Source: Thermofilum pendens Hrk 5
Lineage (GTDB): Archaea; Thermoproteota; Thermoprotei; Thermofilales; Thermofilaceae
DNA length: 31,504 bases
Reading direction: 5' to 3'
Assembly: GCF_000015225.1 (NCBI RefSeq)
Contig: NC_008696.1
Coordinates: 1 to 31,504, forward strand
Part shown: piece after piece, positions 7,587 to 31,504 of the stretch
How positions within the stretch are numbered: the stretch's first letter is position 1
Layout: each line of letters starts with the position of its first letter
Notes under the pieces: model-generated
What the model was told of the DNA's origin: nothing
Seen by the model: only the letters and a program-made list of their open reading frames with translations
The model's database searches: none
Translations under genes and position numbers: made by a program

Positions 7587-7631
7587 AAGCGTTCAAAACA
7601 CACAGCAATGTCCACACAAATAAAGCCATCG

Positions 7632-7647
7632 TTAATTAATTAATTAA
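7632..7647. repeat. (TTAA)4 16-nt palindromic tract
   Basis: ttaattaattaattaa lies immediately upstream (minus strand) of the RHH gene TATA. Confidence 0.8.
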
Positions 7648-7716
7648 CAAATAATCGAAACCCCGGTAAGAAGAAAAAGTAGCCGAGAAGACAGCGCCTC
7701 TGCGCGCCAGTTTTCG

Positions 7717-7732
7717 CCACAAAATTTTGTGG
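7717..7732. promoter_or_regulatory. Palindrome box copy (perfect), right arm of the 27-bp inverted repeat around the RHH gene
   Basis: CCACAAAATTTTGTGGCTAATCCTCCC spans 7717-7743, ~90 nt upstream of the RHH TATA. Confidence 0.9.
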
Positions 7733-7774
7733 CTAATCCTCCCGTTTTTCTTTTCACGGACTTCCCCCTGTTTT

Positions 7775-7849
7775 CCGCTAAAAATCATTTTTACCTTTTA
7801 TGAGCCGCTCCCAGCGCTCCCCGGTAAAACTCGTTTTCATTTTTATGGG
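7775..7849 (+). repeat. Two ~29-nt direct repeats (7775-7804, 7821-7849)
   Basis: ccgcTAAAAaTCaTTTTtaccTTTTATGaG versus ccggTAAAAcTCgTTTTcatTTTTATGgG, both T/A-rich and TATA-like. Confidence 0.7.
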
Positions 7850-7888
7850 TTGTTCTCTGTTTTCTGAGAGTAGGGGGTATGCTGAACC

Positions 7889-7902
7889 GGGGGTATACCC
7901 CC
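7889..7902. repeat. 14-bp perfect palindrome GGGGGTATACCCCC
   Basis: Read directly. Related GGGGGTAT(A/G) words occur at 7873, 8005 and 8013. Confidence 0.8.
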
Positions 7903-8069
7903 AACCCCCTATTATAATAAGTCTAGACTAAAATAGTATAGGGGGTTAATTATATAACTATCCAACCTTCCTAGTCTATTTTAGACCTATTCTTACCGCG
8001 AAAACGGGGGTATAGGGGGTTCTGGGCATACCCCTTTTCTCAACGAGAACAAAAAAGAAAAAACTCATT

Positions 8070-13793: not shown

Positions 13794-13809
13794 CCACAAA
13801 AATTTGTGG
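13794..13809. promoter_or_regulatory. Palindrome box copy (CCACAAAAATTTGTGG, 1 mismatch) overlapping a start codon
   Basis: Lies between the TATA-like motif (13764-13782) and the GTG start at 13806, and includes that start. Confidence 0.75.
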
Positions 13810-14255
13810 CTAGAAAACCCCGCTCCCAGATAGTCTGCCCCCGTTGCGGTGCACCGGGTAGCATCGAGCGTTTCTACAGCAACGGGAGGGCGTACCTCAG
13901 GGTCAGGCACAGCTTGGGCGGAGGGAAGAGGTCTTACTGCTACATAGGCCCCGCGGACAGCTACGTACACGTGGAGCTGTTGCACGCCTTGACGCTCACC
14001 AACCTAGTAAACACAGACCCGGCTCAGGTAGCGGAGAGGGCTTTGGAGGAGCTGATAAGCTCCGCTAGGTTCGTCCACGGTAAGAAGGACTTGGAGGGCT
14101 GGGTAGCCCGGGCTAAGCTCGCGGTAGACGCCGTTGAAATCGCGTTGGAGAAGCTTAAACGGGTCTTGGAGGAAAAGGAGGCTGAGCTGGAGGCGCTTAG
14201 AAGGGAGGAGGAGAGGGAGCTGTTGAGGCAGAACGGTTTACTCGTGTACAAGTAA
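13806..14255 (+). CDS. N-terminal zinc-ribbon plus C-terminal coiled-coil protein (149 aa)
   Basis: Contains CPRCG...CYIG, then a Glu/Leu/Lys-rich helix. The GTG start lies inside imperfect palindrome 13794-13809 and ~24 nt after promoter motif 13764-13782 (leaderless). Confidence 0.65.
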   Translation: MARKPRSQIVCPRCGAPGSIERFYSNGRAYLRVRHSLGGGKRSYCYIGPADSYVHVELLHALTLTNLVNTDPAQVAERALEELISSARFVHGKKDLEGWVARAKLAVDAVEIALEKLKRVLEEKEAELEALRREEERELLRQNGLLVYK

Positions 14256-15431: not shown

Positions 15432-17306
15432 ATGGGCATGAAAAGGTACATACCCCTGTTACTGCTACTGGTAACGGTAGCCTTGGGCATCGCCACCGTA
15501 AAGGCGGCTCCCGTCACGACTTACACGGTCTTCGTCAACTACACCATGTACACGGGCACCGCTCCAGCCGCGGGTAGCACCTACTGGTTCAACTTCACAA
15601 TCACTCCAAGCCTCGACGTCGTCATCGTGACGGTAGAGGACTTGGGAGGCGCTAGCCAGAGGACGGTCTACGTGGACAACGTGGCTGTAACCCTGCCCTA
15701 CAAGCTGAAGGCTGGAGAGACCCACAGGGTAGCCGTCAAGGTCTACTTCCCGAGCGCGCTGACTGTAGCGTGGTTCGGCAAGACGATACTCGCCTACAAC
15801 AGGACTGAGGACGTAAACCTGCAGGTAAAGTACGTGGGCTACGGCTTCGACTCCGTGTCCTACGGGAGCTACGTGGGTAGCGTGGACAACGTGGCAACGC
15901 TGACCGTCAAGCTGGACACGCCTTACACCATGGGGGTCACACACACGTTCAGCTCTGTGTCCACGGTCGTCTGGCTCAGGTTCCACCCGGCGATGCCGAT
16001 TAAGGGCTACACGGGCACCGCCTACTACACCACGACCTTCAACGCCTACACGATTGGAAGCCAGCCCGCGGGCACCGATAGCTACACCATCTCCAACAAC
16101 CCGGTAACCGTCACGGTTGACTGTCCACCGCCAGTAGGGCTCTACGAGCTTGTCTGGTACGTGAGCTGGGGAGGCTTGACGGAGAAGATGCTCGGGGCGC
16201 CGGGCACCCCCACCCCCAACAAGAACTACGCTAGGCTGGTCGGCGCCACGTTTACTTGGAAGTTCACCCCCAACGCCACGTACTTCCCCACGACCAAGGT
16301 TGACGAGTACCTCTTGGTGAACGGTAGCAAGGCTTCGAGCCTCGCGCTGAGCAAGAAGGGGCTCTACAACGCCACCTTCGTCAACATCGGAAAGATGAAC
16401 ACCACGTTCTACGGAGTGCTGGCATACCTGCCCCCCGTGGTCAGGGCGGGTACCATGTACGTCTACGCCGCGGAGCTTAAGGTCAACGTGCTCTCTCAGG
16501 TAGGCACGGTGGGAGCCCCGAGCCCCGGCTTCACTCTCAGCTTAGCCGGCGCGAACGCTCCCGGCTACTTCGCGCTTCAGGTCAAGGTGCCCGAGGGAGT
16601 CGTCACGGTCGAAAAGGCTGAGGGAGTGGCGTGGAACAGGACTGTGCTCCCCGGCATAGCCAAGGACGTCAAGACGAGCCTCGACGCCGATAAGCTGGTC
16701 TACACCGTGAACTACACGTACACGCTGTACTACGCGCCTATAGTGGGAGGCGTCAACTTCCTAGGCGCGTGGGGCATAGAGGAGACTCCGAGCCTTACGC
16801 CGACGAGCCCGACTATAGCCACTCTGACTGCCAGCAAGCCAGTGGTGCTCAACGCTACTAGAAACGTGATAAGGGTCTTGGACTCCGCGGGCAACGACGT
16901 CAGCTTCGTCGGGAAAGCCATAGCGATAAAGAGTAGCGGCACCTACACCGTCAAGCTTGAGACCGTGATAAAGGTCGTCAACCTCTACCAAGGCAAGAAG
17001 ATACCCGCCACGGTCAGGCTCTACGACGCTAAGGGCTTGCGCCTAGCGGAGAAGACCGGGGAGGAGGTAACGTTCACGGTTGAGCCCGGACTGCTCTACA
17101 CGGTCGAATCGGACAACGGTAACGAGGTGCTGACTCAGCGCGTCACGCCTACACAGGACGTCGATGTAACAATGGAGTTCACGAAGCCTCCCGCCGTGGT
17201 AATTCCGTGGGAGTGGGTGTGGCTAGCGCTGGCCATAGTGTTCCTAGTGGTTCTGATATACTTCGCTAAGAGGCTCAAGGAGGGTCTAGAGATAGTAGTG
17301 GGGTAA
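15432..17306 (+). CDS. Large secreted Thr/Val/Tyr-rich protein with signal peptide and C-terminal TM anchor (624 aa); candidate virion fibre/adhesin glycoprotein
   Basis: Motif AAAATAGGGGTTTTTT (15401-16) lies just upstream. It has a signal-like N-terminus, about ten N-x-S/T sequons, and a C-terminal helix plus KRLKEG. Confidence 0.8.
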   Translation: MGMKRYIPLLLLLVTVALGIATVKAAPVTTYTVFVNYTMYTGTAPAAGSTYWFNFTITPSLDVVIVTVEDLGGASQRTVYVDNVAVTLPYKLKAGETHRVAVKVYFPSALTVAWFGKTILAYNRTEDVNLQVKYVGYGFDSVSYGSYVGSVDNVATLTVKLDTPYTMGVTHTFSSVSTVVWLRFHPAMPIKGYTGTAYYTTTFNAYTIGSQPAGTDSYTISNNPVTVTVDCPPPVGLYELVWYVSWGGLTEKMLGAPGTPTPNKNYARLVGATFTWKFTPNATYFPTTKVDEYLLVNGSKASSLALSKKGLYNATFVNIGKMNTTFYGVLAYLPPVVRAGTMYVYAAELKVNVLSQVGTVGAPSPGFTLSLAGANAPGYFALQVKVPEGVVTVEKAEGVAWNRTVLPGIAKDVKTSLDADKLVYTVNYTYTLYYAPIVGGVNFLGAWGIEETPSLTPTSPTIATLTASKPVVLNATRNVIRVLDSAGNDVSFVGKAIAIKSSGTYTVKLETVIKVVNLYQGKKIPATVRLYDAKGLRLAEKTGEEVTFTVEPGLLYTVESDNGNEVLTQRVTPTQDVDVTMEFTKPPAVVIPWEWVWLALAIVFLVVLIYFAKRLKEGLEIVVG

Positions 17307-17313
17307 GCCCCGT

Positions 17314-17331
17314 AAAACGATAGCTTTTTTT
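17314..17331 (+). promoter_or_regulatory. Plus-strand promoter/terminator motif AAAACGATAGCTTTTTTT
   Basis: Lies 7 nt after the stop of 15432..17306 and 24 nt before ATG 17355. Confidence 0.6.
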
Positions 17332-17354
17332 CTTTCTCTCTTCTTTTCAAGCAT

Positions 17355-17555
17355 ATGAGCTGGGATTGTGGAAGGTGCGAGGACGACACGCACGTCAGGA
17401 GCATGGAGGGGAGGGTGGGAGGGGGAGACGGCGCCGTGTGCTACCTGTGCGGTCTACCCGCATACGCCTACGTGGACGGTAAGCCCGTGTGCGTGTACCA
17501 CTACGCACAGCTCATCTCCAAGAAAAAGGTGGCGGCGGAGGTGAGGGCTAGGTGA
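17355..17555 (+). CDS. Zinc-finger small protein (66 aa; CxxC...CxxC...CxxH)
   Basis: ATG lies 24 nt after AAAACGATAGCTTTTTTT (17314-31), leaderless. Confidence 0.65.
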   Translation: MSWDCGRCEDDTHVRSMEGRVGGGDGAVCYLCGLPAYAYVDGKPVCVYHYAQLISKKKVAAEVRAR

Positions 17556-17845
17556 TGGAGCTGGCGGGGGTTGGGGCTGTAAGCGTGGTCTTGGGGTACG
17601 CGGTTAGAAAGGGGGTCAACTTCATACTGGGGCTTCTAGGCGTTTTCGTCGCCTTCCTCCTAGTCCTTCAGGCTCTGGGCTACGCGGTGGTGGACTGGGC
17701 TAAGCTGGTAAACGACGCCTACGGGCTCCTCGAATCCCTGCTATCCCAGCAGGACTTAGCCTCGAAGCTTGAACAGGTCTTACCCGGGGGACTGGTGGGC
17801 ATAGCCGGCTTCATGGTGGGCTGGAAGCTCGGGGGGAAGCTGTAA
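17552..17845 (+). CDS. Membrane protein (97 aa, 3 TM helices)
   Basis: GTGATG overlap with the upstream stop. Product is hydrophobic. Confidence 0.65.
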   Translation: MMELAGVGAVSVVLGYAVRKGVNFILGLLGVFVAFLLVLQALGYAVVDWAKLVNDAYGLLESLLSQQDLASKLEQVLPGGLVGIAGFMVGWKLGGKL

Positions 17846-17858
17846 AGAGGGGGGCTAA

Positions 17859-18299
17859 ATGGAGGCTGAGGACTTCCTAGCCGTAGCCTTCGTTCTAGCG
17901 CTAGCCACAGCCCTAGCCCTCGGGCTGTTCACGGAGGGGGTAAAGGCTGTCAGCCCGGCGTGGGCTGGGGGAAGTAGCGGAGGGGGAGGAGGGGGGTCTC
18001 AGGTTAGCCTAGGCGTCGTAGAGCTGGAGGTAGAGGGGTACGCGCCGAGGAGCGCTATACCCCCCGGGGTTCTTTTATCCGCTAAGCCCCTAAACGTTGT
18101 CAACGCTACCTGCAGGTGCCCCGAAGACCCGGAGACGTTCAAGGGCGGGGTAAAGTGTATATGCTGGGTCACGGTCAAGGAGGGGTGCTACCCCCTGTAT
18201 CCCACCCTGTGCGCTAGGACTAACGTGGTGTGCACGGGTAAAAAGTACAGGGTCTGGTGGGTATCGGGGGGCTGGGTCATCCCCACCACGGGGGGCTAG
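17859..18299 (+). CDS. N-terminally anchored/secreted Cys-rich protein (146 aa) with a Gly-rich linker
   Basis: Hydrophobic N-terminus, GGSSGGGGGGS linker, then 8 Cys in the C-terminal domain. Confidence 0.65.
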   Translation: MEAEDFLAVAFVLALATALALGLFTEGVKAVSPAWAGGSSGGGGGGSQVSLGVVELEVEGYAPRSAIPPGVLLSAKPLNVVNATCRCPEDPETFKGGVKCICWVTVKEGCYPLYPTLCARTNVVCTGKKYRVWWVSGGWVIPTTGG

Positions 18300-18300
18300 A

Positions 18301-18462
18301 ATGGAGGGGTTTAGGCGGGAGCTGAAGGAGAGGGCTTTGAGGGCTCTACGGGAGGGGGTAAAAGGGGTGGACTTGGAGAGGGCTCTGAGAGAATTCGAGG
18401 AGACTAGGAGCGAGGTGTGGAGGGAGCTGGAGAAAAAGTATAGGGAGAGGGGGCTAATCTAG
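18301..18462 (+). CDS. Small coiled-coil protein (53 aa), below the ORF-track cutoff
   Basis: My own translation: MEGFRRELKERALRALREGVKGVDLERALREFEETRSEVWRELEKKYRERGLI. The ATG lies 1 nt after the upstream stop. Confidence 0.45.
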   Translation: MEGFRRELKERALRALREGVKGVDLERALREFEETRSEVWRELEKKYRERGLI

Positions 18463-18707
18463 CCCAGCTCTACCTCCAGCTCGAAGTCCTCGCGTATCTC
18501 TTTCACTAGGCGCTTGGCGGCTCTCTCGCTCGCCGCTCTACCTATCTTCTCCAGCTCTCTCTCGAGGTGCACCCAGTCCTCCGAGAGCGCTAGGGTGCTC
18601 AGGAGGGGGTAATCCCAGAACTCGGCTACTTCCTCTCTCCAGTAGTCGCTGAAGTAGGAGGAATCGGCTAGGTACCTGTCCACTACCTCCTTTCTCCGCT
18701 CGCTCAT
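18459..18707 (-). CDS. Hypothetical acidic protein (82 aa)
   Basis: I start it at the ATG at 18707 (MSERRKEVV...), ~30 nt downstream of ATATTTTAAAG (minus strand). The track start at 18881 would run through a repeat arm. Confidence 0.55.
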   Translation of the reverse strand: MSERRKEVVDRYLADSSYFSDYWREEVAEFWDYPLLSTLALSEDWVHLERELEKIGRAASERAAKRLVKEIREDFELEVELG

Positions 18708-18743
18708 CGAGGGGTATAGAGGGGGAGGGGGCTTTAAAATATT

Positions 18744-18841
18744 CCTCGGGAAAAGCCCCGAGAATATGAGGGGTCTACCTCCCTCGTTTTCGCCGTTTCT
18801 GTGGGGCTCGGGGTATAGCCCAAAAGCCCCGTAAGAGGGGG
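18744..18841 (+). repeat. Inverted-repeat arm A (98 nt)
   Basis: Its reverse complement aligns with 22994-23091. The first 28 nt are identical, the next ~27 nt carry 2 mismatches, the middle diverges, and the last ~18 nt match again. Confidence 0.8.
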
Positions 18842-18875
18842 CTAGCCCTCGGACCGAGGGGTGGGGGCTGAATAG

Positions 18876-18891
18876 CCACAAAATTTTGTGG
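18876..18891. promoter_or_regulatory. Palindrome box copy (perfect)
   Basis: Abuts the stop of 18892..19323 and lies just outside repeat arm A. Confidence 0.9.
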
Positions 18892-19323
18892 CTAAATCGC
18901 GGCTAAAGCGTGCTCTACCTTCGCGATTGCTTCGAGGGCCCGGGCGTCCCTGCTCATCCTCCCCTCGACGGCTAGCTCCCTCAGCACTCTTACGTCTTTC
19001 CACGTGTAGGGGTACCTAGACTTGTAGACGTTGAGCAATCTGACTAGGTCGGCGTACTCCCTTCTGCACAGGGCTATCAGGCGGGCTAGGCTCTCCCATT
19101 CATGCGCGCTCAGCCTAGCCCTCTTAGTCTTTTTTCCTCCCCATTCGACCACTACGTAGCCCCCTATCCTCTCAGCCTCCCTTATGTCCTCTACAGCCCT
19201 AGCCGGGATTCCTAGGGCTAAAAGGCTCCTCGCCAAACACTCCGCGGGGTTGTCCGTGCACTCGAATGGTCTAAGCCTCTCGTATACCGCTCGGTAAAGG
19301 GACTCAATCCTAGCCCTGCTCAC
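18892..19323 (-). CDS. Hypothetical protein (143 aa)
   Basis: ORF with a GTG start. Its stop codon abuts palindrome 18876-18891. Confidence 0.6.
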   Translation of the reverse strand: MSRARIESLYRAVYERLRPFECTDNPAECLARSLLALGIPARAVEDIREAERIGGYVVVEWGGKKTKRARLSAHEWESLARLIALCRREYADLVRLLNVYKSRYPYTWKDVRVLRELAVEGRMSRDARALEAIAKVEHALAAI

Positions 19324-19361
19324 GGGGGGATAAGGGAAAAACAGGGATAAAAAGCCACTTT

Positions 19362-19532
19362 TCAGTACTCCCTAACATCGGCTAGGAAGTCTCGGACTAA
19401 CTGCTTTACCTCGGGGTCTTGTAGCAATTCCTCTATAGCCTCTCTAAGAGCCTCCTTTATAGCCTCCTTCACGGTGTCCTTAAGCTCTTTTCTTAGCTCT
19501 TGTAGCTCCTTTATTACCGCTAGCTCTAACAT
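19362..19532 (-). CDS. Small coiled-coil protein (56 aa), below the ORF-track cutoff
   Basis: My own translation: MLELAVIKELQELRKELKDTVKEAIKEALREAIEELLQDPEVKQLVRDFLADVREY. GCTTATATCC lies ~30 nt upstream. Confidence 0.4.
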   Translation of the reverse strand: MLELAVIKELQELRKELKDTVKEAIKEALREAIEELLQDPEVKQLVRDFLADVREY

Positions 19533-19650
19533 TGCTTATTCGATGGCTATACGCCTTAGGGGGATATAAGCCCATCGTTTAAGCCTACAGGCCCTAAAAC
19601 GAAAAAGCCCCGAGGAAAAAGCCGAGAGAAAAAAGCGAGGAAAAAAGGGC

Positions 19651-19749
19651 TTAATTCTTCTGGGGCTGGGGGCTGAGGTACTCAGTCAGAGTCCTCTGGT
19701 CTAGGTAGACGTTTATCGGCACCTGTTTCTTCGGGATTTTCCTCGGCAT
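19651..19749 (-). CDS. Possible 32-aa peptide resembling the N-terminal strand-helix of an RHH protein
   Basis: MPRKIPKKQVPINVYLDQRTLTEYLSPQPQKN lies downstream of type-B promoter block 19774-19824. Its N-terminus resembles that of 6813..7586 (MPRPKK...VVPLVL). Confidence 0.3.
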   Translation of the reverse strand: MPRKIPKKQVPINVYLDQRTLTEYLSPQPQKN

Positions 19750-19773
19750 TTCTCGCCTCACCGAGGTATAGGT

Positions 19774-19824
19774 AAACGGGGTAGCTAATAAGGATTTCGT
19801 TTAACTTTTCACAGGGCTATACGT
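19774..19824 (-). promoter_or_regulatory. Type-B promoter block copy 1
   Basis: aaacggggtagctaataaggatttcgtttaacttttcacagggctatacgt. On the minus strand it reads ...AAACGAAATCCTTATTAGCTACCCCGTTT. Confidence 0.7.
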
Positions 19825-19827
19825 TAG

Positions 19828-19843
19828 CCACAAAATTTTGTGG
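19828..19843. promoter_or_regulatory. Palindrome box copy (perfect; 24-bp palindrome TTAGCCACAAAATTTTGTGGCTAA at 19824-19847)
   Basis: Lies ~36 nt upstream of the TATA of type-B block 19774-19824. Confidence 0.9.
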
Positions 19844-19922
19844 CTAAAGCCCCGAGGAAAAAAGCGAGGAAAAATCTAGGGATAAAATCCTAGGAAAAGC
19901 CCCGGGAATAAGGGCAGTAGCC

Positions 19923-19978
19923 CCCCCTCATTTTCAACGATTCTGCGGGGCACGGGGTATAGCCCAAAAGCCCCTAGA
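19923..19978 (+). repeat. Partial direct copy (B) of arm A
   Basis: Shares GGGGTATAGCCCAAAAGCCCC (19954-19974 versus 18810-18830) plus flanking similarity. Confidence 0.7.
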
Positions 19979-19985
19979 AAAAGGG

Positions 19986-20183
19986 CTATTTCCTGGGCTT
20001 CCTAGCCTCTATGTAGACTCTCACGCCTCTCCTCATTTTCCTAGCCGTGTACGGTCTACTCCTGCGCACCTGTAGCCCCATCCTTATGAGTAGCTCTTCG
20101 ACTGCGCTCACTATCAGCCTGTATTCCTCCTCGCTTATCCTTTCCTTGTCCGCGATAATCCTGATTTGCACGTCTCCCCTCAC
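19986..20183 (-). CDS. Small basic protein (65 aa) translationally coupled to the helicase
   Basis: GTGA overlap with the helicase stop. Confidence 0.6.
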   Translation of the reverse strand: MRGDVQIRIIADKERISEEEYRLIVSAVEELLIRMGLQVRRSRPYTARKMRRGVRVYIEARKPRK

Positions 20184-22081
20184 TGCAATCCCCTCCTCGC
20201 GAATATCGCCTTTAGCTTGTGAAACGCCGTCTCCTCGTGCGTGTAAGCCACGTAGACGTAGAACAGCGTGGCTTTCGTCTTTCCAGGCGCCGGTCTCAAT
20301 AGCCTCCCTGCTCTCTGTATGAGCTGTCTGTCAGTCGTACCGCTCGCTAGCATTACGCCTACGCTTACCTCGGGTACGTCTACTCCCTCGTCTAGCACTC
20401 TGCACGTCACTAGTACTCTGAAGGTTGAGCCCCACTCTTTGAGTATCCTCGCGCGCTCGGTCTTAGGCGTCTTGCTGAGTATCGCTTTTCCTCCGAGTGT
20501 CTGGGCTAGCTTTAACGCCACGTCTTGGCTCTCAGTCCACACTAGTACTCTGTTGTGCTCCTGTGCTAGCCTGTTGATAAGCGCTAGCGCCGAGCTCCAC
20601 TTAACAGGGCTCCTCGCGGCTAGCTGTTTCCTTAAGTTTACCAGCTTCATCAAGTCCTTCTTCAAGTGTTTCTCCCCGTCCTCTATGCGCCTGCTTAGGC
20701 GCCTAATCTTCTCCTGTATCTCCTCGTACTGCTGGTAGAACTCCTGTGTCTCCGTCACTCTTATCCCCACTAGCTCGATTGGCACCATGTAGCCTTGCTC
20801 CTGTAGCTCGCTCGGGCTTACCTCATAGCGCTTAGGTAGTAGCATGTCAAGCACCCACTGCTCTTCTGTGTCCTCGCGCTTGTGCGTCGCGCTAAAGCCA
20901 TAGATGTGCACGCCTAGCCTAGCCAGCCTCGCCAGAGTCCTCGCTAGCTCCCTAGCCCCTGCATGATGGCTTTCGTCAACTATCACTGCGAAAGGCGTGT
21001 AGCCCCGCTTAACCTCGCTCACGAAAGTGTTGTAGACCATTACCGTGATTAGCTCGCCTAGCCCTTGTCCTCGCCTGTTCACTCCCCCGTACTTCACGTT
21101 CACTCTGAGCCTCCACTCCCTCTCAAAGTGGCTAGCCCACTGCTCAGCCAGCACTTGCGTGGGCACGATAATAGCCGTGTCATAGCCCCATAGCGCTAGG
21201 TTCACGGCTAGCGTGCTACCGATAAGCGTCTTTCCGCCGCCTGTGGGGATTTGCACGGCGCCGTGCGCGCTGAGTAGCCATCTAAGCGCTATCCTCTGGT
21301 AGTCGCGCATTTTCTTCGGCACGACAATTTTAGCCACGCGTATTTTCCTAATGCGCTCGCTTAAAACTCTAGCCGTGTAGTCTCTCTCGGTTAGCCCCTG
21401 CTCCCTTAAAAGTTCTTTGAGCCTTTCCTCGTCGCCTGCTAGGTCGGCTAGCAGTTCATAGCCCCATATCGACGTGTCCACGCCTAGGATTATCTGGGTG
21501 CTGGCTTCTTCCTCGGTTAGCTCTAGCTCGCTTATGGCTTGTGGGGCTAGGATTTGTCTCCAGTCTACGTACTGCTCTACGCCTAGCTTTTGGGCTAGCT
21601 CTGCGTATTTGTCTTTTAGGCGAGGATTCTGGGCTAGGATTTGCTTAGCTTCCTCGATTTCCTCGGGGCTAGCCTCGCCTAGCTCTACCTTGTCGGCTAA
21701 CACCGCGAGGCGGCTCTCAAGCCATGAATTGTACTGCGCTTCGACTTCCTCGGGGCTATTATTATCAGAATAATAAGCCCCGCCTAGCCATTTAGCGAGG
21801 ATTTTTTCGACGATAGCCAAATTCTCGCCTAGCGAAAGACTAGAATCTACGGCGTCGCATATGTCGTTGACGATTTCCTGTGTGTCTAGCCCTTTAGCCC
21901 TTATAAGGGCTAAGCGCGAGGCTATAGCCCTAGCTATTTCGAATTCAAGGCTAGGGGCTAAATCGCGGTTACGCCTTATGGCTAGGCGCAATCGCTCTAC
22001 CTCGCTATTGTAGGCGCTTAGAGGATTAGAGTCGGGGCTAACTTCTTTTCCTATAGCCCCCCACGCCTTTTTCTCTCGCAT
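20180..22081 (-). CDS. Superfamily-2 DExH helicase (633 aa; XPB/Rad25 or type III restriction res-subunit-like core) with a ~250-aa unknown helical N-terminal domain
   Basis: Motifs appear in order: I PTGGGKT, Ia IIVPTQ, II VIVDESHH, III FSAT, V TCRVLDEGVDVP, VI QRAGRLLR. TTTTAAGC lies ~26 nt upstream of the ATG. Confidence 0.9.
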   Translation of the reverse strand: MREKKAWGAIGKEVSPDSNPLSAYNSEVERLRLAIRRNRDLAPSLEFEIARAIASRLALIRAKGLDTQEIVNDICDAVDSSLSLGENLAIVEKILAKWLGGAYYSDNNSPEEVEAQYNSWLESRLAVLADKVELGEASPEEIEEAKQILAQNPRLKDKYAELAQKLGVEQYVDWRQILAPQAISELELTEEEASTQIILGVDTSIWGYELLADLAGDEERLKELLREQGLTERDYTARVLSERIRKIRVAKIVVPKKMRDYQRIALRWLLSAHGAVQIPTGGGKTLIGSTLAVNLALWGYDTAIIVPTQVLAEQWASHFEREWRLRVNVKYGGVNRRGQGLGELITVMVYNTFVSEVKRGYTPFAVIVDESHHAGARELARTLARLARLGVHIYGFSATHKREDTEEQWVLDMLLPKRYEVSPSELQEQGYMVPIELVGIRVTETQEFYQQYEEIQEKIRRLSRRIEDGEKHLKKDLMKLVNLRKQLAARSPVKWSSALALINRLAQEHNRVLVWTESQDVALKLAQTLGGKAILSKTPKTERARILKEWGSTFRVLVTCRVLDEGVDVPEVSVGVMLASGTTDRQLIQRAGRLLRPAPGKTKATLFYVYVAYTHEETAFHKLKAIFARRGLQ

Positions 22082-22660
22082 ATTCCTCGCCTAGAATATA
22101 CGCCTAAGCTTAAAACGTGGTATTAGTAATCGACGTTATTAATCGACTCTGGGCTAAAAGAAGTTAGCCAAAATCGCCTATTAGCAATGGCTATAGCCAA
22201 TAGCAGTAGCCATTAGCTATAGCCATTAAGCATTAGAAAAAGAGTCGAATCGCAATTCGACTAAAGGCTATTAGCCCAAAAACGAAACAAAATTCGACTC
22301 TTACGCTATTATTCGAATTGTCAAAACAAAAATCGACGATAGCCTATTAGCCTTTAGGCTAAACGCTTATCGACTCTTACTAATCGACAAAAAGCTAGCC
22401 GAATTTAGCCTAAGAGTAAACGACTATAGGCTAAAGCTCTTTAGCCTATTGGCTATTAGCCCAAAAACGAATAGCCATTCGACTATAGGCTATTAGCCCA
22501 TTGGCTAAAGGCTATTCGACTCTTACGCTATTAGCCCCTATTCCTCTCGCTCTAGCCCCTATTAGCCCTAGCCCTATAGCCCCGTAGAGGTAGAGGAAAA
22601 GGCGAAAACCCTCTAGCCCCTAGGCTAGCCTGTATCCCTTCTTTCCTCCTTTTTCTTTTT
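22082..22660. repeat. Repeat-dense, visibly AT-richer non-coding region; putative replication origin with iterons
   Basis: No credible ORF. The 19-mer TTCGACTCTTACGCTATTA occurs at 22293-22311 and 22515-22533, with variant ATCGACTCTTACTAATCGA near 22369. The 21-mer GGCTATTAGCCCAAAAACGAA occurs at 22266-22286 and 22451-22471. There are at least 8 copies of CTATTAGC(C). The region lies immediately upstream of the helicase gene. Confidence 0.55.
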
Positions 22661-22722
22661 GTTTTTCTTTTCCCTTCTTTTCCAATTTCGCGGAATTGGA
22701 AATGAGGTTTCGGGGCTTTCGT

Positions 22723-22770
22723 GGGGCTTTTGGGCTATGCCGCGAGCCCGTTTACCCCCGTTTCTCTCCC
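22723..22770 (-). repeat. Partial inverted copy (C) of arm A
   Basis: ggggcttttgggctatgccgcgagccc... is the reverse-complement counterpart of the arm core. Confidence 0.6.
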
Positions 22771-22993
22771 TAGCCCCCCTCTGTATCCCCCCTCCCGTAT
22801 ATTGCTCCCGCGACGGGGCGTTTTACACCGATAAAACGAAACAGGGGAAGCCTCCCGTTTTTTCCCTTTTCGCAAAATTGGAAAAAGCGGAGAAACCTAA
22901 AGGAAAAAAGCGCTTAAAACTAGGGCCTGTAAAACGCAATTTTCCCCTCGAACCCGGGGCTAAAGCCCAAGGGCTAGACCCCCTCCGTTAAAC

Positions 22994-23091
22994 CCCCCTC
23001 TTACGGGGCTTTTGGGCTATACTCTGAGCCCCACAGAAACGGCGAAAAAACGGGGGGCTAACCGATTTTGTACCCGGGGCTTTTCCCGAGG
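22994..23091 (-). repeat. Inverted-repeat arm D (98 nt)
   Basis: ccccctcttacggggcttttgggctatactctgagccccacagaaacggcgaaaa...cccggggcttttcccgagg. Confidence 0.8.
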
Positions 23092-23096
23092 AAAAC

Positions 23097-23123
23097 GCGA
23101 GAAAAAAAGAACAGTTTTAGGGG
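23097..23123 (-). terminator. Conserved 3' block / oligo-T terminator (minus strand CCCCTAAAACTGTTCTTTTTTTCTCGC)
   Basis: Directly follows the stop of 23125..23532 and contains a T7 run. Confidence 0.6.
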
Positions 23124-23124
23124 T

Positions 23125-23532
23125 TTACCTGAGGATGCCGCGCTCCCGGGCTATTTTCTCTATTGGGGGAAACGTGTGTTCAAAGCTTGTCCCCAGCCAC
23201 GTCAGAAACTCGCAGTACTCGCTTTCGAAGCCGTCGGTCTCCAAGGCGCGTATCATGCGGTAGTACTGCTCCATGTAGCTAGCCCTGACGAGGATTGTGT
23301 TCTTGAACCCGTAGGCGCATACGAGAGCCTTGAGAGCCCCGAGGAAGTCAACCCAAGCCTGAAGCCCCTCCTCTTCAGCCTTCTTCTGAAGCTCCTCTAT
23401 CTCGTCGATGAGGACGGGTACGTTGACGTCGTTGACCTCGCGGATGGTGTGCACGAGCATGTCTAGGAAGGTGTGCTTGAGGACTGCGCGGCTAGCGTCC
23501 TTGATTTTATCGGCGAATTTCTCGTAGACCAT
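23125..23532 (-). CDS. Hypothetical protein (135 aa), cassette gene 1
   Basis: Type-B promoter block lies upstream and a conserved 3' block lies downstream. Confidence 0.65.
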   Translation of the reverse strand: MVYEKFADKIKDASRAVLKHTFLDMLVHTIREVNDVNVPVLIDEIEELQKKAEEEGLQAWVDFLGALKALVCAYGFKNTILVRASYMEQYYRMIRALETDGFESEYCEFLTWLGTSFEHTFPPIEKIARERGILR

Positions 23533-23555
23533 GGCTTTTCGCCGAGAATAGAGTA

Positions 23556-23606
23556 AAACGGGGTAGCTAATAAACCTTTCGTTTTACACAAAACGGGGCT
23601 AAACGC
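23556..23606 (-). promoter_or_regulatory. Type-B promoter block copy 2
   Basis: aaacggggtagctaataaacctttcgttttac...ggggctaaacgc. The TATA TTTATTAG lies ~35 nt from ATG 23532. Confidence 0.75.
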
Positions 23607-23623
23607 ATGCTAGCCGCGAAAAA

Positions 23624-23639
23624 CCACAAAATTTTGTGG
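23624..23639. promoter_or_regulatory. Palindrome box copy (perfect)
   Basis: Lies ~50 nt upstream of the TATA of type-B block 23556-23606. A T5 run follows on the minus strand. Confidence 0.9.
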
Positions 23640-23693
23640 CTATTCAGCGCGACGGACTCTCCTCACACCCTCGGTAGCCGAGCCTCATCACAC

Positions 23694-23723
23694 GCGAGAG
23701 AGAAAAAAGAACGATTTTAGGGG
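23694..23723 (-). terminator. Conserved 3' block / oligo-T terminator
   Basis: gcgagagagaaaaaagaacgattttagggg follows the stop of 23724..24191. Confidence 0.6.
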
Positions 23724-24191
23724 TTATTCTTCGCAAAAGCCTTCCCAATCCTCCTCTTCCTCCTCCCAGTCCTCCTCGGCGCCTAGGTAGTAGTTGACGA
23801 TGTCCTCGAAGTCCTCGTGGAATTCGACCATCACGTGAATGTCTAGGTCGCTCCACAGCTCAATGACCTCGCCGACGTATCCGAGGAACCACAGGATAAC
23901 CCCGTCTCCTTCAGCCCCCTCCCAGACCTTCAGCTCGTCGTGCTCCTCTATTATGTCCTCGAAAAACTCGCCCTCCCAAATCTCCCTGAGGTGGACGATT
24001 GCGAAGGTCTTGTCCTCGGCGTAGTCGTGACCAAAGGTAAGGACGTAGTCGTAGATATGCTCGGGTGCGGCTAGGTACACGCGCACGTACCTGACGGGGG
24101 AATCGACCTTCTTCAGCTGTGCTCCCCTGTAAAGCTCTCTGACCCTCTTTATCTGCTCCCTCGTTTTCTCAACGGTTGTTGTCACGCTCAT
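23724..24191 (-). CDS. Hypothetical acidic protein (155 aa) with EEDWEEEEEDWEGFCEE tail, cassette gene 2
   Basis: Type-B promoter block lies upstream and a conserved 3' block lies downstream. Confidence 0.65.
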   Translation of the reverse strand: MSVTTTVEKTREQIKRVRELYRGAQLKKVDSPVRYVRVYLAAPEHIYDYVLTFGHDYAEDKTFAIVHLREIWEGEFFEDIIEEHDELKVWEGAEGDGVILWFLGYVGEVIELWSDLDIHVMVEFHEDFEDIVNYYLGAEEDWEEEEEDWEGFCEE

Positions 24192-24203
24192 AGCGGGGTA
24201 TAG

Positions 24204-24257
24204 AACGCGGGGGTAGCTAATAAAGGTTTCGCTTTATTTTTCACGGGGGCTAAACGA
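24204..24257 (-). promoter_or_regulatory. Type-B promoter block copy 3
   Basis: aacgcgggggtagctaataaaggtttcgctttat...gggggctaaacga, upstream of 23724..24191. Confidence 0.75.
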
Positions 24258-24383
24258 AAGCATTTTGTAGCAAATCAGAGCTGTAGGCTCTCCTCACGGC
24301 TCGGCGCCAAGCATGCTCATCACGCGGTTCAACACCGAAACCCTGTTTCGGTCCGAAACTAGAAAAAAGCTTCGAGCGAAAGA

Positions 24384-24412
24384 GCGAGAGAAAAAAAGAG
24401 TAATTTTAGGGG
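24384..24412 (-). terminator. Conserved 3' block / oligo-T terminator
   Basis: gcgagagaaaaaaagagtaattttagggg follows the stop of 24413..24997. Confidence 0.6.
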
Positions 24413-24997
24413 CTAATACTCCTCGTCCTCCCAGTCCTCCTCATCCCAGTCGATGGGCTCGTATTCCTCTCCGTAGTCGTCGAAGTCCTCTTCTTCCTCT
24501 TCGCTAGCCGAGTCGTAGCAGACGCGAGAAGAGTCACACTCGCAGGGTAGCTCGTCCTCGTCTCCGGGCTTCTCCCAGTAGGGTCTAAGAGTGCCCCAGT
24601 CGAAGCCCTCGATAAGCTCCAAGGCTTGAGCCAAGGAGAGCCTCCTGTAGACCCATACCTCGGTCACGATTTCCTCCACAGCCCTCTGAAGCCACACGGG
24701 GGCACACCTAGACGCTTGAACCTTCACCCACCTTTTGCCACCGCGACGGAAGAGCCCCACGTAGACGGCGCGCCTGACGACCGTGCTGTCCGTGATGCCG
24801 TCTCTTCGCCACACGTCGAAGGTGCCCGGTACTCTGAAGCGGTGCTCGCCTATGCGTCCGGCGCAGTAGCCGCCGTCTCCGCAGGGGTAGATGCCGCGCC
24901 ACACGGCTAGCCGTGTGGCTCGGTAGCTCTCGACTGCGTGCTCGGTGCACAAGCCCTGCCTGTCGTCGCAGTTGACCCAGCAGTCTAGTAGGCTCAT
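24413..24997 (-). CDS. Cys-rich protein (~194 aa) with an acidic Trp/Tyr tail, cassette gene 3
   Basis: I prefer ATG 24997 (GTG 25006 is the alternative), ~32 nt from the TTTATTAG TATA. The N-terminus has 6 Cys. The tail is EEEEEDFDDYGEEYEPIDWDEEDWEDEEY. Confidence 0.65.
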   Translation of the reverse strand: MSLLDCWVNCDDRQGLCTEHAVESYRATRLAVWRGIYPCGDGGYCAGRIGEHRFRVPGTFDVWRRDGITDSTVVRRAVYVGLFRRGGKRWVKVQASRCAPVWLQRAVEEIVTEVWVYRRLSLAQALELIEGFDWGTLRPYWEKPGDEDELPCECDSSRVCYDSASEEEEEDFDDYGEEYEPIDWDEEDWEDEEY

Positions 24998-25015
24998 GCT
25001 TATCACGTAAGAGTG

Positions 25016-25066
25016 AAACGGGGTAGCTAATAAACCTTTCGTTTAACTTTTCTCGGGGCTAAACGC
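25016..25066 (-). promoter_or_regulatory. Type-B promoter block copy 4
   Basis: aaacggggtagctaataaacctttcgtttaacttttctcggggctaaacgc, upstream of 24413..24997. It directly abuts the DpdA-like stop. Confidence 0.75.
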
Positions 25067-25848
25067 TAAAAGAACGATAAAATCGAGGGCTGAGACCCCC
25101 ACCTCCTCGCTATCTCCTCGTAGCGCGAGATATAGGCGCGTATAGCCTCAGCCCTCTCCTCGATATCGCTACACCAGCTGTTCTCGCACCACCGGTACAT
25201 AGCGCTACTATCGAAGCTGAAGAACCGCCTAGTCCTCCCAGCCACGCGCGCCACAGCCCTGAGGCTCGGCCCGAAGACGTGGAAAGGCTTAGCCGTCACG
25301 GAGTCAAAGGCTAGAATCATCTTAGCCAAGACCCCCCACCTATTGCTGGCACAGGTGGGGCCCAAGGCTACAAGCTCGAACTCGTCGTATAGCTCCCTGT
25401 TCTCCGAGTACACCCTGACGGGGCTCAAGGGGTCGTCCTTCTTACCCTGCACCACGGCTACAGCCGTGCCCGGCAGGCTATCGACGCGCGTCAGCCACCG
25501 CTTGATGCTCTCTAACGTCTTCTCGACGTTGAGGGGGTAGAATTGCTCCATCCCCGGGTAGTCCGAGGGGTAGTCCGGAATCACGTAGTAGAACTCCTCG
25601 ACCCTAGCCTGAGCGTGAACCCTAGAGATGAACCTAGCATAGCCGTACTCGAAGCCCGAGGGGTACTCGAAGCCCCCCGACTCCTTAAACACCTTGTGGA
25701 CACCCGTATCGACTAAGACGCCCTCAGGTCTACACTTCTTCAGCCACTGCTCCCAGTCGTAGTACACGTATGGATTGACAACTACATGGGGGTAGCACAC
25801 CCCAGCGCTCCTCAACCTACTCACGCTTATGTAGAGCCGCGGAACCAC
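25066..25848 (-). CDS. dpdA: tRNA-guanine transglycosylase (TGT) superfamily protein, DpdA-like candidate DNA 7-deazaguanine transglycosylase (260 aa)
   Basis: TGT-like motifs appear in order: LVDTG (DSG position), IPDYP, VVQG (GIVQGG position), ALGP, HVFGP, FDSS (FDSAS/FDCV position). The N-terminal ISVSRL resembles DpdA N-termini. There is no C-terminal Zn subdomain. Confidence 0.65.
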   Translation of the reverse strand: MVPRLYISVSRLRSAGVCYPHVVVNPYVYYDWEQWLKKCRPEGVLVDTGVHKVFKESGGFEYPSGFEYGYARFISRVHAQARVEEFYYVIPDYPSDYPGMEQFYPLNVEKTLESIKRWLTRVDSLPGTAVAVVQGKKDDPLSPVRVYSENRELYDEFELVALGPTCASNRWGVLAKMILAFDSVTAKPFHVFGPSLRAVARVAGRTRRFFSFDSSAMYRWCENSWCSDIEERAEAIRAYISRYEEIARRWGSQPSILSFF

Positions 25849-26120: not shown

Positions 26121-26133
26121 CGGGTTAGATAGT

Positions 26134-26184
26134 GAAAGGGCCGGCTAATAAAGCTTACGCTTAACCCTTCTCGGGGAAAAACGC
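26134..26184 (-). promoter_or_regulatory. Type-B promoter block copy 5 (more divergent)
   Basis: gaaagggccggctaataaagcttacgcttaacccttctcggggaaaaacgc, upstream of 25827..26120. Confidence 0.6.
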
Positions 26185-26217
26185 TTATATACCCCTTCAG
26201 CTATAACTCTACCGGCT

Positions 26218-30661: not shown

Positions 30662-31498
30662 CTACAGCTTTATCGTCAGGGCAGAGTCTATGGCGTCCAC
30701 CATTCTCGCTACATCGACCTTTGTATATACTTGAGTCGTTGTTAGCTGAGCATGACCCAGTAGCGTCTGAATCGTCCTGATGTCAACCCCGTTGTTCAAC
30801 AGGAGAGTAGCGTAGGTGTGCCTCAGCGTGTGGGGAGTCACGCGTTGAAGACCCGCGCGCCTAGCCACCCTTGAGACCAAGTGCTGTATGCTCCTAGCGC
30901 TTACCGGCTTATCGGGGTCTAACGGGCTGGGAAAGATGTAGCCAGCCCTACCCGTGCACCTCGCCTTGATAATCTCGACTACGTCCTTCGTCAGCGGTAC
31001 AAGCCTGACCTTGTCACCTTTGCCCCTGACCCTCAGCATGTACCTGCCATCGCCCACCACCAGCACGTCCTCGCACCTGCTGTGCACGAACTCGCTTACC
31101 CTCAGCCCCGTCTTCAACAGGAATACTATGACCTCGCGCTCGGCTGGGCTAGCCACTGACAACAGCTTCCTGACGTCCTCGGTTCCCAGTGCTTTGGGGA
31201 CGGACTCGGGCTTCTTAACCGGTGGCAGAGTCCAAGGCAGACCGGCGAACTTGTGGAAGCCCCTGAGCACGACGTACGCGGTTCTGATGCTAGTCCTCTT
31301 TTCCCAGCCGTTCTTTTCGAGCCACGAGATGAACGCGGCTGGGTCAGGCTTACCCGTATCCTCTACGAACTTGGCGTACGCGAACAGCACGCTCGCGTAG
31401 GTCTTGTACGTGTTGTGGCTCCTAAGCGCCTTGACTACTCCCAGATAGTTCTCCACCAGCGCCCTGATGTCCTCCGGCTTTGCCACCGCCTCTTGCAC
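30662..31498 (-). CDS. int: Tyrosine recombinase/integrase (XerC/D-like, 278 aa)
   Basis: It has a SAM-like N-terminal domain. The catalytic signature is present: TGLRVSE (Arg I), HTLRHTYAT (H-x-x-R), LLGHAQLTTTQVY (His/Tyr). Confidence 0.9.
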   Translation of the reverse strand: MQEAVAKPEDIRALVENYLGVVKALRSHNTYKTYASVLFAYAKFVEDTGKPDPAAFISWLEKNGWEKRTSIRTAYVVLRGFHKFAGLPWTLPPVKKPESVPKALGTEDVRKLLSVASPAEREVIVFLLKTGLRVSEFVHSRCEDVLVVGDGRYMLRVRGKGDKVRLVPLTKDVVEIIKARCTGRAGYIFPSPLDPDKPVSARSIQHLVSRVARRAGLQRVTPHTLRHTYATLLLNNGVDIRTIQTLLGHAQLTTTQVYTKVDVARMVDAIDSALTIKL

Positions 31499-31504
31499 GG
31501 CTCA

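Follow-up and report, generated by a model that had tools for sequence, protein, structure and literature searches.

Iteron-type origins of bacterial plasmids are known with auxiliary sites outside the iteron array, such as the inverted repeats at the repA promoter of pSC101, incA of P1 and those of R6K, and the interplay of such sites is described by handcuffing and titration models. The oriV of RSF1010 and the IncQ group carries, beside its iterons, the conserved hairpin signals ssiA and ssiB on opposite strands, which serve a primase of the plasmid acting jointly with its helicase. To our knowledge, almost nothing is known about the replication of plasmids and viruses of the Thermoproteales. 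A published review portrays archaeal origins as AT-rich stretches that lie beside the initiator gene between inverted repeats bound by the initiator, with outlying clusters of repeats as negative regulators (PMC4010727). We analyzed a 31,504-bp stretch of Thermofilum pendens Hrk 5 DNA (referred to here as the window), which is a whole circular plasmid, as a Logan contig (SRR9438660) joins positions 3178..1 to 31504..30845. This replicon, known as pTPEN01, carries an undescribed, lineage-specific non-coding DNA element in three full copies of about 112 nt (A, B and D) and one fragment (C), with A and B in mirror-image orientation to C and D across the gene for an XPB-like helicase and a repeat-dense non-coding region. 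A possible reading, which we favor with some reserve, is that these elements are cis-acting modules of double-stranded DNA, bound by protein, within the replication-control region of the plasmid.

Copy boundaries were obtained with an nhmmer profile that was built on the three full copies and run over the replicon. Copies A (18737–18848, E value 5e-36) and B (19882–19993, E value 6e-34) are direct repeats on the minus strand, whereas copy D (22987–23097, plus strand, E value 6e-35) is inverted relative to both. Copy C (22717–22749, plus strand, E value 6e-4) is partial, consisting of the core only, and is oriented like D. Copy A reads CCCCCTCTTACGGGGCTTTTGGGCTATAC... on the minus strand, away from the helicase gene and the proposed origin. 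A doubtful fragment, E (22568–22595, minus strand; TAGCCCTATAGCCCCGTAGAGG on the plus strand), is oriented like A and B at the right edge of the iteron field and is not significant alone (E value 0.42). The profile found nothing else in the whole replicon, and the family is thus confined to 18.7–23.1 kb.

The original prediction for this DNA had proposed a 98-nt inverted repeat with nested partial copies around a helicase and origin module. Comparison of the replicon with itself by BLAST recovers this repeat as the strongest non-self match (E value 1e-24), with arms at 18742–18841 and 22994–23093 that extend over 100 nt and are 84% complementary. The internal pattern that had been described, an identical run followed by a stretch with two mismatches, a diverged middle and matching outer ends, is likewise present, with an identical run of 29 nt (CCCCCTCTTACGGGGCTTTTGGGCTATAC) instead of 28. 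The 16-mer core ATAGCCCAAAAGCCCC occurs exactly four times in the replicon, against 0.38 occurrences expected, and is identical in all four copies including fragment C; these occurrences reproduce the predicted layout A> B> ... <C <D. Both inner copies had been taken for partial cores, which holds for C but not for B, since the latter is a third full-length copy rather than a 21-nt fragment.

The three full copies align without indels, and 66 of the 105 alignment columns are invariant. Copy B is 78–82% identical to A and D over 82–96 nt, and A and D are closer to each other at 84%. Conservation is block-wise: each of two conserved blocks contains a CGGGGCTTTT box, these boxes stand exactly 71 nt apart in all three copies, together with the TATAGCCCAAAAGCCCC core, the first block runs on into GGGCTATAC(C)CCGAGCCCCACAGAAACGGCGAAAA, and about 25 nt between the blocks are poorly conserved. 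Identical runs of 18–29 nt are longer than expected by chance in every pair of copies (permutation, p 0.01–0.02), and the mismatches between A and D are bunched in one 25-nt stretch (permutation, p 1e-4). Such a pattern points to selection acting on the sub-blocks or, alternatively, to gene conversion in patches. Coding potential was considered and rejected: an ATG-initiated frame of 22 codons exists in copy A only, B and D lack it, and there is no conserved peptide.

Copies C and D lie in the largest non-coding stretch of the replicon (22082–23124, 1,043 bp), which holds, from left to right, an iteron field, a T-tract with a palindrome, copy C and copy D. An open reading frame (ORF) within it, at 22659–22991, is of low complexity and unannotated; our gene calls agree with the NCBI accession run ABL79266–ABL79273, in which nothing is annotated between the helicase gene and a gene for a 135-aa protein. 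The iteron field (22100–22560), directly upstream of the helicase start at 22081, is made up of 66-nt units and short words (TTCGACT, GCTATTAGCC, GGCTATAGCC). It includes the AT-richest 200 bp of the replicon (22221–22420, GC 0.365); the T-tract is some 300 bp further right. The T-rich tract and palindrome occupy 22620–22702 on the plus strand, with a conserved part at 22649–22671 (CTTTTTCTTTTTGTTTTTCTTTT) followed by the palindrome TTCCAATTTCGCGGAATTGGAA.

The elements and the iterons have a word in common. The 10-mer TAGCCCAAAA occurs seven times where 0.055 occurrences are expected: the element cores account for four of them, iteron units (GGCTATTAGCCCAAAAACGAA) for two and the helicase gene for one. 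Moreover, each full copy contains one iteron-like site, GGTATAGCCCAAAAGCC, which is related to the iteron unit GGCTATTAGCCCAAAAAC. These sites are polar, and their polarity differs between the two sides of the T-tract. All eight TA(T)TAGCCC sites in 21.9–22.6 kb are on the plus strand, as are those in A and B; C and D carry theirs on the minus strand. Similarly, GGGGCTTT is found on the minus strand at all six of its positions in 18752–19967 and on the plus strand at all four in 22712–23076, which together account for ten of the 14 copies in the replicon. The switch falls on the T-tract and palindrome at 22.62–22.70 kb. If replication forks leave from 22.6–22.7 kb, GGGGCTTTT always lies on the would-be lagging-strand template.

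The gene beside this region (20180–22081, minus strand) encodes a 633-aa protein that combines an N-terminal domain without known function (residues ~20–120) with an XPB/Rad25-like superfamily 2 (SF2) helicase core (residues 257–616). Pfam and NCBIfam scans of all ORFs of at least 53 aa revealed no Orc1/Cdc6, no AAA+ initiator and no recognizable primase, and Pfam recognizes in the helicase the sole replication-type function of the replicon, as had been predicted; its replicative role is presumed. The protein is only 22–26% identical to lipothrixvirus helicases, and no direct relative above 29% identity was found among 5.8 billion proteins, nor any in IMG/VR. The composition of the module also differs from its surroundings in the way that had been noted by eye: GC falls to 0.46 at 21.5–23 kb, the words CTAG, TAGCC and GCTAGC are enriched 3–5 fold in 19–23 kb, and the four genes between A and D have a G+C content at third codon positions (GC3) of 0.53–0.69, compared with 0.77–0.78 just outside. 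CTA makes up 52% of the leucine codons of the helicase gene, compared with 17% elsewhere. We also observed that the same three words are enriched 3–5 fold in the body of the helicase gene, and that TAGCC is at the same time a half-site of the iterons, of the element core and of the palindrome ends.

Relatives of the replicon could be reached only via the N-terminal 256 residues of the helicase protein, for which an exhaustive search returned a small family whose profile in turn identified replicon-sized contigs. A 624-aa protein was tried as another route and rejected, as it led to contigs (L220 and L221) too short to inform on the helicase module. The replicon-sized contigs are L222, a metagenome contig of 33,664 bp (JGI 3300036468 Ga0392390_00201), with which L223 (Logan SRR12226569) is grouped (L222/L223, 33.7 kb), and L224 (Logan SRR25522551, 25,871 bp). 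Judged by their genes, these three contigs are newly linked relatives of pTPEN01. Their GC is 0.45–0.47, and they have at least 11 genes in common with the plasmid, with identities of 33–38% for the N-terminal domain, 32% for the XPB-like helicase, 38% for the tyrosine integrase, 35% for FUN14, 30% for DUF5658 and up to 78% for small proteins. The N-terminal domain and the helicase, which are fused in pTPEN01, are encoded in the relatives by separate adjacent genes (330–337 and 374–375 aa, respectively). The layout is otherwise the same: a non-coding region of about 1.1 kb is followed by the helicase block, which points away from it and converges on a block encoding a 66-aa protein and FUN14. 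These contigs allow comparison within a replicon family that has no known initiator.

The element itself is absent from the relatives. Neither L222/L223 nor L224 contains a match to the element profile (best E value 1.5) or an inverted repeat longer than 35 nt around the helicase, and each has a single GGGGCTTT and lacks the CCACAAAATTTTGTGG palindrome. Among non-coding sequences, only the T-tract, CTTTTT(C)TTTTT(T)GTTTTTCTTTT, is common to pTPEN01, L222 and L224; it is 96% identical over 24 nt (E value 5e-5) and is followed by a palindrome in each replicon. In the relatives, a co-oriented cluster of GTATA(G/A) iterons lies between the T-tract and the helicase module. We consider the helicase block to be a conserved, collinear backbone module of the replicon family, and the 112-nt elements an addition of the pTPEN01 lineage, as comparison of these sequences indicates. 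The helicase genes of L222 have the lowest GC3 among their neighbors (0.46–0.51 compared with about 0.6–0.69), and the compositional dip is therefore a trait of the family and not a mark of recent import.

The comparison with the relatives yields further observations. The non-coding regions of L222 and L224, each of about 1.1 kb, show 81% identity across 945 nt, a high figure for non-coding sequence. The T-tract and palindrome (22620–22702 in pTPEN01, 9650–9715 in L222 and 4270–4340 in L224) lie on the helicase-sense strand in the relatives and on the opposite strand in pTPEN01, where it is flanked by the core-like sites E and C, which have opposite orientations. One lineage may accordingly have undergone a small local inversion of the unit. 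The orthologous helicase gene of L222 is not enriched in CTAG, TAGCC or GCTAGC.

One of the two interpretations in the original prediction was that the inverted repeats enclose a horizontally exchanged or invertible cassette. The copies would then be recombination sites or transposon ends, allowing inversion between A and D or B and D, excision of the segment encoding the ribbon-helix-helix-like and 143-aa proteins between A and B, or movement of the whole segment as a cassette with 100-nt terminal inverted repeats. Like invertible segments and transposons with terminal inverted repeats, pTPEN01 has long inverted repeats that bracket a gene-bearing segment of 4.1 kb, and a tyrosine recombinase is encoded on the replicon. 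The presence of both inverted and direct copies with identical runs of 22–29 nt, the lower GC3 between A and D than just outside, and the flipped T-tract unit between opposed core-like sites would also accord with recombination. However, the relatives, which lack such repeats, keep the helicase block oriented as in pTPEN01 with respect to the 66-aa/FUN14 block, and low helicase GC3 recurs in L222. The original prediction had itself named a segment collinear in relatives among the results that would count against it, and the relatives show such collinearity. There is no target-site duplication (the left flank ends ...CTTTAAAATA and the right flank begins AACGCGAGAA...), the scans found no transposase or Cas1, and the only recombinase is not adjacent but 7.5 kb away, conserved at 38% identity in the repeat-less relatives. 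One orientation is seen: an independent Logan contig, L217 (SRR9438660), matches 16179–19063 at 100% identity and crosses copy A in the reference configuration, the D side being outside the contig. The 16% divergence of the arms also speaks against frequent exchange. Because of the collinear repeat-less relatives, the family-wide GC3, the lack of a duplication or transposase, the distant and conserved integrase and the L217 junction, we regard recombination sites or transposon ends as highly improbable, and as the least likely explanation considered here. What appears to be a cassette between inverted repeats need not be mobile or invertible.

The copies might instead be neutral or nearly neutral relics of duplications that accompanied rearrangement in the pTPEN01 lineage, their identical runs being kept by occasional gene conversion. 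The absence of the element from the relatives would suit this, as would the rearranged state of the region in pTPEN01 (the helicase fused, the T-tract unit flipped relative to the helicase, cassette genes reoriented and the integrase moved) and the closer similarity of A and D (84%) than of either to B (78–82%). Such relics would hardly show substitution divergence of 16–22% over three copies with no indel and an exact 71-nt spacing between boxes, and neither the invariance of one 16-mer in all four copies, including C, nor the clustering of mismatches (p 1e-4) is readily accommodated. This origin for the copies seems to us quite unlikely.

Comparison with the described systems places pTPEN01 near several of them. 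As in iteron-type plasmid origins, tandem iterons stand beside an AT-rich stretch next to a likely replication gene, and iteron-related copies, some of them inverted and promoter-proximal, lie outside the origin. In contrast to these plasmids, pTPEN01 is archaeal and has no recognizable Rep protein, and its outlying copies sit in a much longer module with two added CGGGGCTTTT boxes. As in the IncQ oriV, iterons occur together with a helicase that the plasmid encodes, and related elements with hairpins lie on opposite strands on either side, with GGGGCTTTT on the would-be lagging-strand template; pTPEN01 differs in having no recognizable primase, in the position of the copies, which are 0.05–3.8 kb from the center and not in a compact oriV, and in showing no sign of strand-displacement replication.

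The likeness to archaeal origins with origin recognition boxes (ORBs) and Orc1/Cdc6 lies in an AT-rich, repeat-dense non-coding region beside a likely replication gene, in sites opposed on the two sides of a central tract with the AT minimum at 22221–22420, and in extra copies kilobases away, beyond the gene. The plasmid differs in that it lacks an Orc1/Cdc6 gene, its neighbor being the XPB-like SF2 helicase, and in that its unit is a 112-nt composite, to which binding is predicted, instead of a box of about 22–36 nt. The dyad core of the ORB is TCCA-NN-GGAAA. Taken as a consensus, this dyad has eight matches with at most one mismatch, compared with 5.9 ± 2.7 expected, which is chance level; the matches in A and D are the outer hairpin TCCTCGGGAAA, and the CCCCACAGAAACGG segment has none. 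Membership in the ORB/Orc1 class fails because there is no Orc1/Cdc6 gene and the dyad occurs at chance level.

The other interpretation in the original prediction, symmetric control elements around an origin, fits best, because the cores and iterons share a 10-mer, the polarity of sites flips at the conserved T-tract and palindrome, and the AT minimum is nearby; we nevertheless stop short of calling it probable. From the arrangement of these sequences we infer the position of the origin, the binding of protein and a control function. The origin proper would consist of the iteron field (22.10–22.56 kb) and the conserved T-tract and palindrome (22.62–22.70 kb), beside the helicase gene, with the iteron-like sites to the left of the T-tract, including those of A and B, facing one way and those to its right, in C and D, the other. 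A single plasmid-encoded origin-binding protein would occupy the iterons and the flanking elements alike, for which the N-terminal domain of the helicase, the 56-aa ribbon-helix-helix-like protein, the 143-aa protein and a 65-aa basic protein are candidates. By analogy with archaeal ORB arrays and their outlying repressive clusters (PMC4010727) and with bacterial iteron plasmids, the outlying copies would act as auxiliary sites that could titrate this protein or pair with the origin, in the manner of handcuffing or of copy-number control. Given their exact placement at junctions between transcription units, the copies could also regulate or insulate the adjoining units. In kind, such a family is a variant of origin-associated repeated control sites and not categorically new.

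A number of points weigh against symmetric control around an origin. All the proposed binding proteins are candidates, and the helicase is XPB-like, which makes it neither a known initiator nor a proven replicative enzyme. Copies A and B are 2.6–3.8 kb from the proposed center of the origin. Some iteron words are near-palindromic, so that their polarity depends on the flanking CCC(AAAA). GC skew in the replicon tracks gene strand, the origin position being deduced, and a second AT-rich intergenic gap exists at 7587–8069 (483 bp, GC 0.42). The long identical runs could be accounted for by gene conversion and not selection, and the copies may be transcribed. Finally, because relatives with the same helicase module lack the element entirely, it cannot be essential to the replication mechanism of the family.

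A more specific version would make the copies polar, origin-flanking signals of an unrecognized archaeal replicon type, in which replication would depend on an XPB-like SF2 helicase that has a specialized N-terminal domain. Signals for priming or helicase loading, like the ssi sites of IncQ plasmids, would then be provided by the CGGGGCTTTT boxes, always on the would-be lagging-strand template of forks leaving the T-tract, and the core would recruit the initiator of the plasmid; we think this version very unlikely. In either form, the analysis gives a testable map of a replicon without a recognizable initiator, comprising a probable origin, an XPB-like helicase with a family-specific N-terminal domain, and mirror-oriented composite sites. 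Should a plasmid protein bind these sites, they would open a way to study how a family without Orc1/Cdc6 recognizes its origin and controls its copy number. If they bind none, they are an example of fast invention and copying of regulatory DNA modules in archaeal mobile elements.

The surroundings of the copies bear on a further alternative. All genes from 18459 to 25848 are on the minus strand, every full copy is positioned at a junction between transcription units, and an A/T-rich box lies within 10 nt of each outer end. Copy A sits between the stop of the gene for a 143-aa orphan protein (ABL79267, 18892–19323, minus strand), whose stop codon is within a copy of a plasmid-wide palindrome and which lies between A and B, and the TATA box of a leaderless gene for an 82-aa orphan protein (18459–18707, minus strand). 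This TATA box, TTTAAAATA at 18733–18741, directly adjoins the outer end of A. Also between A and B is the gene for the 56-aa protein (ABL79268, 19362–19532, minus strand), which has weak matches to ribbon-helix-helix (CopG-like) families (RHH_1, E value 1.3e-3, below the cut-off) and is a candidate DNA-binding regulator on the strength of this similarity. Copy B starts at the stop codon of the gene for the 65-aa basic orphan protein (19986–20183, minus strand), the last gene of the helicase operon, whose start overlaps the helicase stop by 4 nt. The outer end of D abuts the stop and T7 block of the convergent gene at 23125–23532; directly after the stop of this gene, a CCCCTAAAA-N-T7-CTCGCG block (23096–23123, minus strand) leads into copy D. 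Two arrays of T-runs lie near B on the minus strand. One, at 19597–19650, has CCTCG(G)GGCTTTT units, holds one CGGGGCTTTT box and follows a 32-aa mini-ORF (19654–19749); the other, at 19840–19892, combines T-runs with CCTCGGGGCTTT between copy B and a palindrome at 19825–19846.

These positions raise the possibility that the copies are duplicated intergenic boundary modules, each combining a stop signal with the upstream regulatory region of the next promoter, that have no role in replication and owe their symmetry to local gene order. The junctions themselves (B at an operon stop, A before the 82-aa TATA box, D at the stop and T7 of 23125–23532) and the A/T-rich box at every outer end speak for such modules, as do CCTCGGGGCTTTT units, which also occur in the plain T-run arrays at 19597–19650 and 19840–19892. 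The cassette genes to the right of the non-coding region face it in pTPEN01, unlike in the relatives, so that a barrier would be needed where D sits, and the replicon is rich in reused signal blocks, including promoter blocks and an 11-copy palindrome. However, the outward strand has only T4 runs, the inward strand T4–T6, and evident stops elsewhere in the replicon have T6–T7; a scan for bacterial-type promoters and terminators showed no enrichment, with 9 hairpins followed by T-runs compared with 6.4 ± 2.7 in shuffles. Copies C and D point along the plus strand, where there is no annotated gene. A stop signal has no need of 112 nt with an invariant core of 16–29 nt, and the word common to the cores and iterons would be left unexplained. 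Ordinary promoter conservation, which the original prediction had named as the account that would undo it, does not explain the arms because the interior of the element contains no A/T-rich TATA-like octamer, such octamers being found only at the outer border. Overall, we judge it unlikely that the copies are boundary modules alone.

Transcription of the copies themselves was also considered. They could be genes for small non-coding RNAs that are transcribed inward (plus strand for A and B, minus strand for D) and that might, among other roles, regulate replication or the convergent genes. On its minus strand, D follows the CCCCTAAAA-N-T7-CTCGCG block, and in the next cassette the same block precedes a C/D-box small RNA candidate, so that D occupies the corresponding slot; TATA-like boxes also stand just upstream of A and B on the plus strand. 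All copies keep two short hairpins: GGGGCT...AGCCCC surrounds the core, and CTCGGG-AAAAGC-CCCGAG is found at the outer end. One pair changes in a compensatory series, U-A, U-G and C-G, which is tolerated on the inward strand only. Copy A alone folds well (z-score -4.0), but the z-scores of B (-0.9) and D (-0.85) are not significant. The folds of sub-blocks are inconsistent across copies and strands, the covariation term is about zero with three sequences, and Rfam scans of the whole window and focused scans of the copies, on both strands at E values up to 10, gave no match to any copy. A structured RNA is not supported by the sequences because of the missing Rfam match, the inconsistent folds and the near-zero covariation. 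In addition, A and B differ from D in where transcription is predicted to start with respect to the element, and at A the TATA box clearly belongs to the 82-aa gene, which is on the opposite strand. We find small RNA genes quite improbable, and the original failure to assign a coding or known RNA function to the repeat agrees with these results, as the copies are non-coding. A search for tRNA and tmRNA genes found none on the replicon.

Two candidate C/D-box small RNA genes of archaeal type, at 23642–23695 and 24273–24327 (both minus strand), occupy gaps between tandem cassette genes. Both show canonically spaced boxes: C (GUGAUGA), D' (CCGA), C' (GUGAGGA) and D (CUGA). They match Rfam sR33 with 19 and 28.8 bits, under the gathering score of 37, and with local E values of 0.06 and 3e-4, respectively. 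Plasmid-borne C/D small RNAs would be unusual.

Searches beyond the relatives returned only chance matches to the element. A 17-mer of the core had three in IMG/VR, and an 18-mer had 92, all bacterial and none extending, in 185,579 genomes; T. pendens was not among the genomes returned, which places the host chromosome effectively outside this search. None of the matches listed for a 16-mer in metagenomes extended, the probe being too short, and a phage collection and PLSDB gave no DNA match. We found no publication on pTPEN01. A kinship of the element with a family of 57-nt promoter blocks, seen by eye, received no support from a profile search.

Other regulatory sequences are reused across the replicon. 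The palindrome TAGCCACAAAATTTTGTGGCTA or near copies of it occur 11 times, where none is expected, as 22-nt sites at 5192, 5634, 6792, 7714, 9222, 13791, 18873, 19825, 23621, 27458 and 28973. They are mostly at gene ends or starts, sometimes over stop codons, and are absent from the relatives; IMG/VR has one chance match. The palindrome probably serves a pTPEN01-specific regulator as its operator or as a stop signal that works in both directions. A promoter block of about 55 nt (AAACGAAAGGTTTATTAGCTACCCCGTTT...) is present in five copies directly upstream of minus-strand genes (19774–19826, 23550–23606, 24210–24256, 25010–25068 and 26131–26185), and a second family of intergenic blocks (TAAAACGATAG followed by a T-run) lies between plus-strand genes, such that whole regulatory modules are reused. 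The mini-ORF at 19654–19749 (minus strand), which has 32 codons (MPRKIPKKQVPINVYLDQRTLTEYLSPQPQKN) and is unannotated, comes with a promoter block of its own and precedes the strong multi-T-run array; it could encode a tiny DNA-binding peptide or serve as a decoy. The intergenic gap at 7587–8069 holds TTAATTAATTAATTAA, a palindrome copy and GGGGTATACCCCC-type repeats, and may be an alternative origin or a regulatory region.

Among the remaining genes, the tyrosine recombinase (30662–31498, minus strand; Phage_integrase, E value 8e-34) is the only recombinase and has 38% identity to its counterpart in the relatives; the replicon yielded neither a tRNA gene nor a tRNA-like attachment sequence. 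Near this gene, the Logan assembly (SRR9438660; contig L218 compared with 30845–31504) shows a single substitution relative to the reference across 660 nt, and it is otherwise identical over the 6.7 kb compared. Three paralogous orphan genes (3846–4226, 4677–5198 and 5211–5609, all minus strand) have 33–46% amino acid identity and common upstream blocks, and form a small tandem family. Lastly, a 149-aa protein (13806–14255, plus strand) has a sub-threshold match to the PSV_ORF131-like domain of Pyrobaculum spherical virus (E value 1.5e-5, 25.3 bits compared with a cut-off of 27), which hints that this family of plasmids may be related to globulovirus-like viruses.

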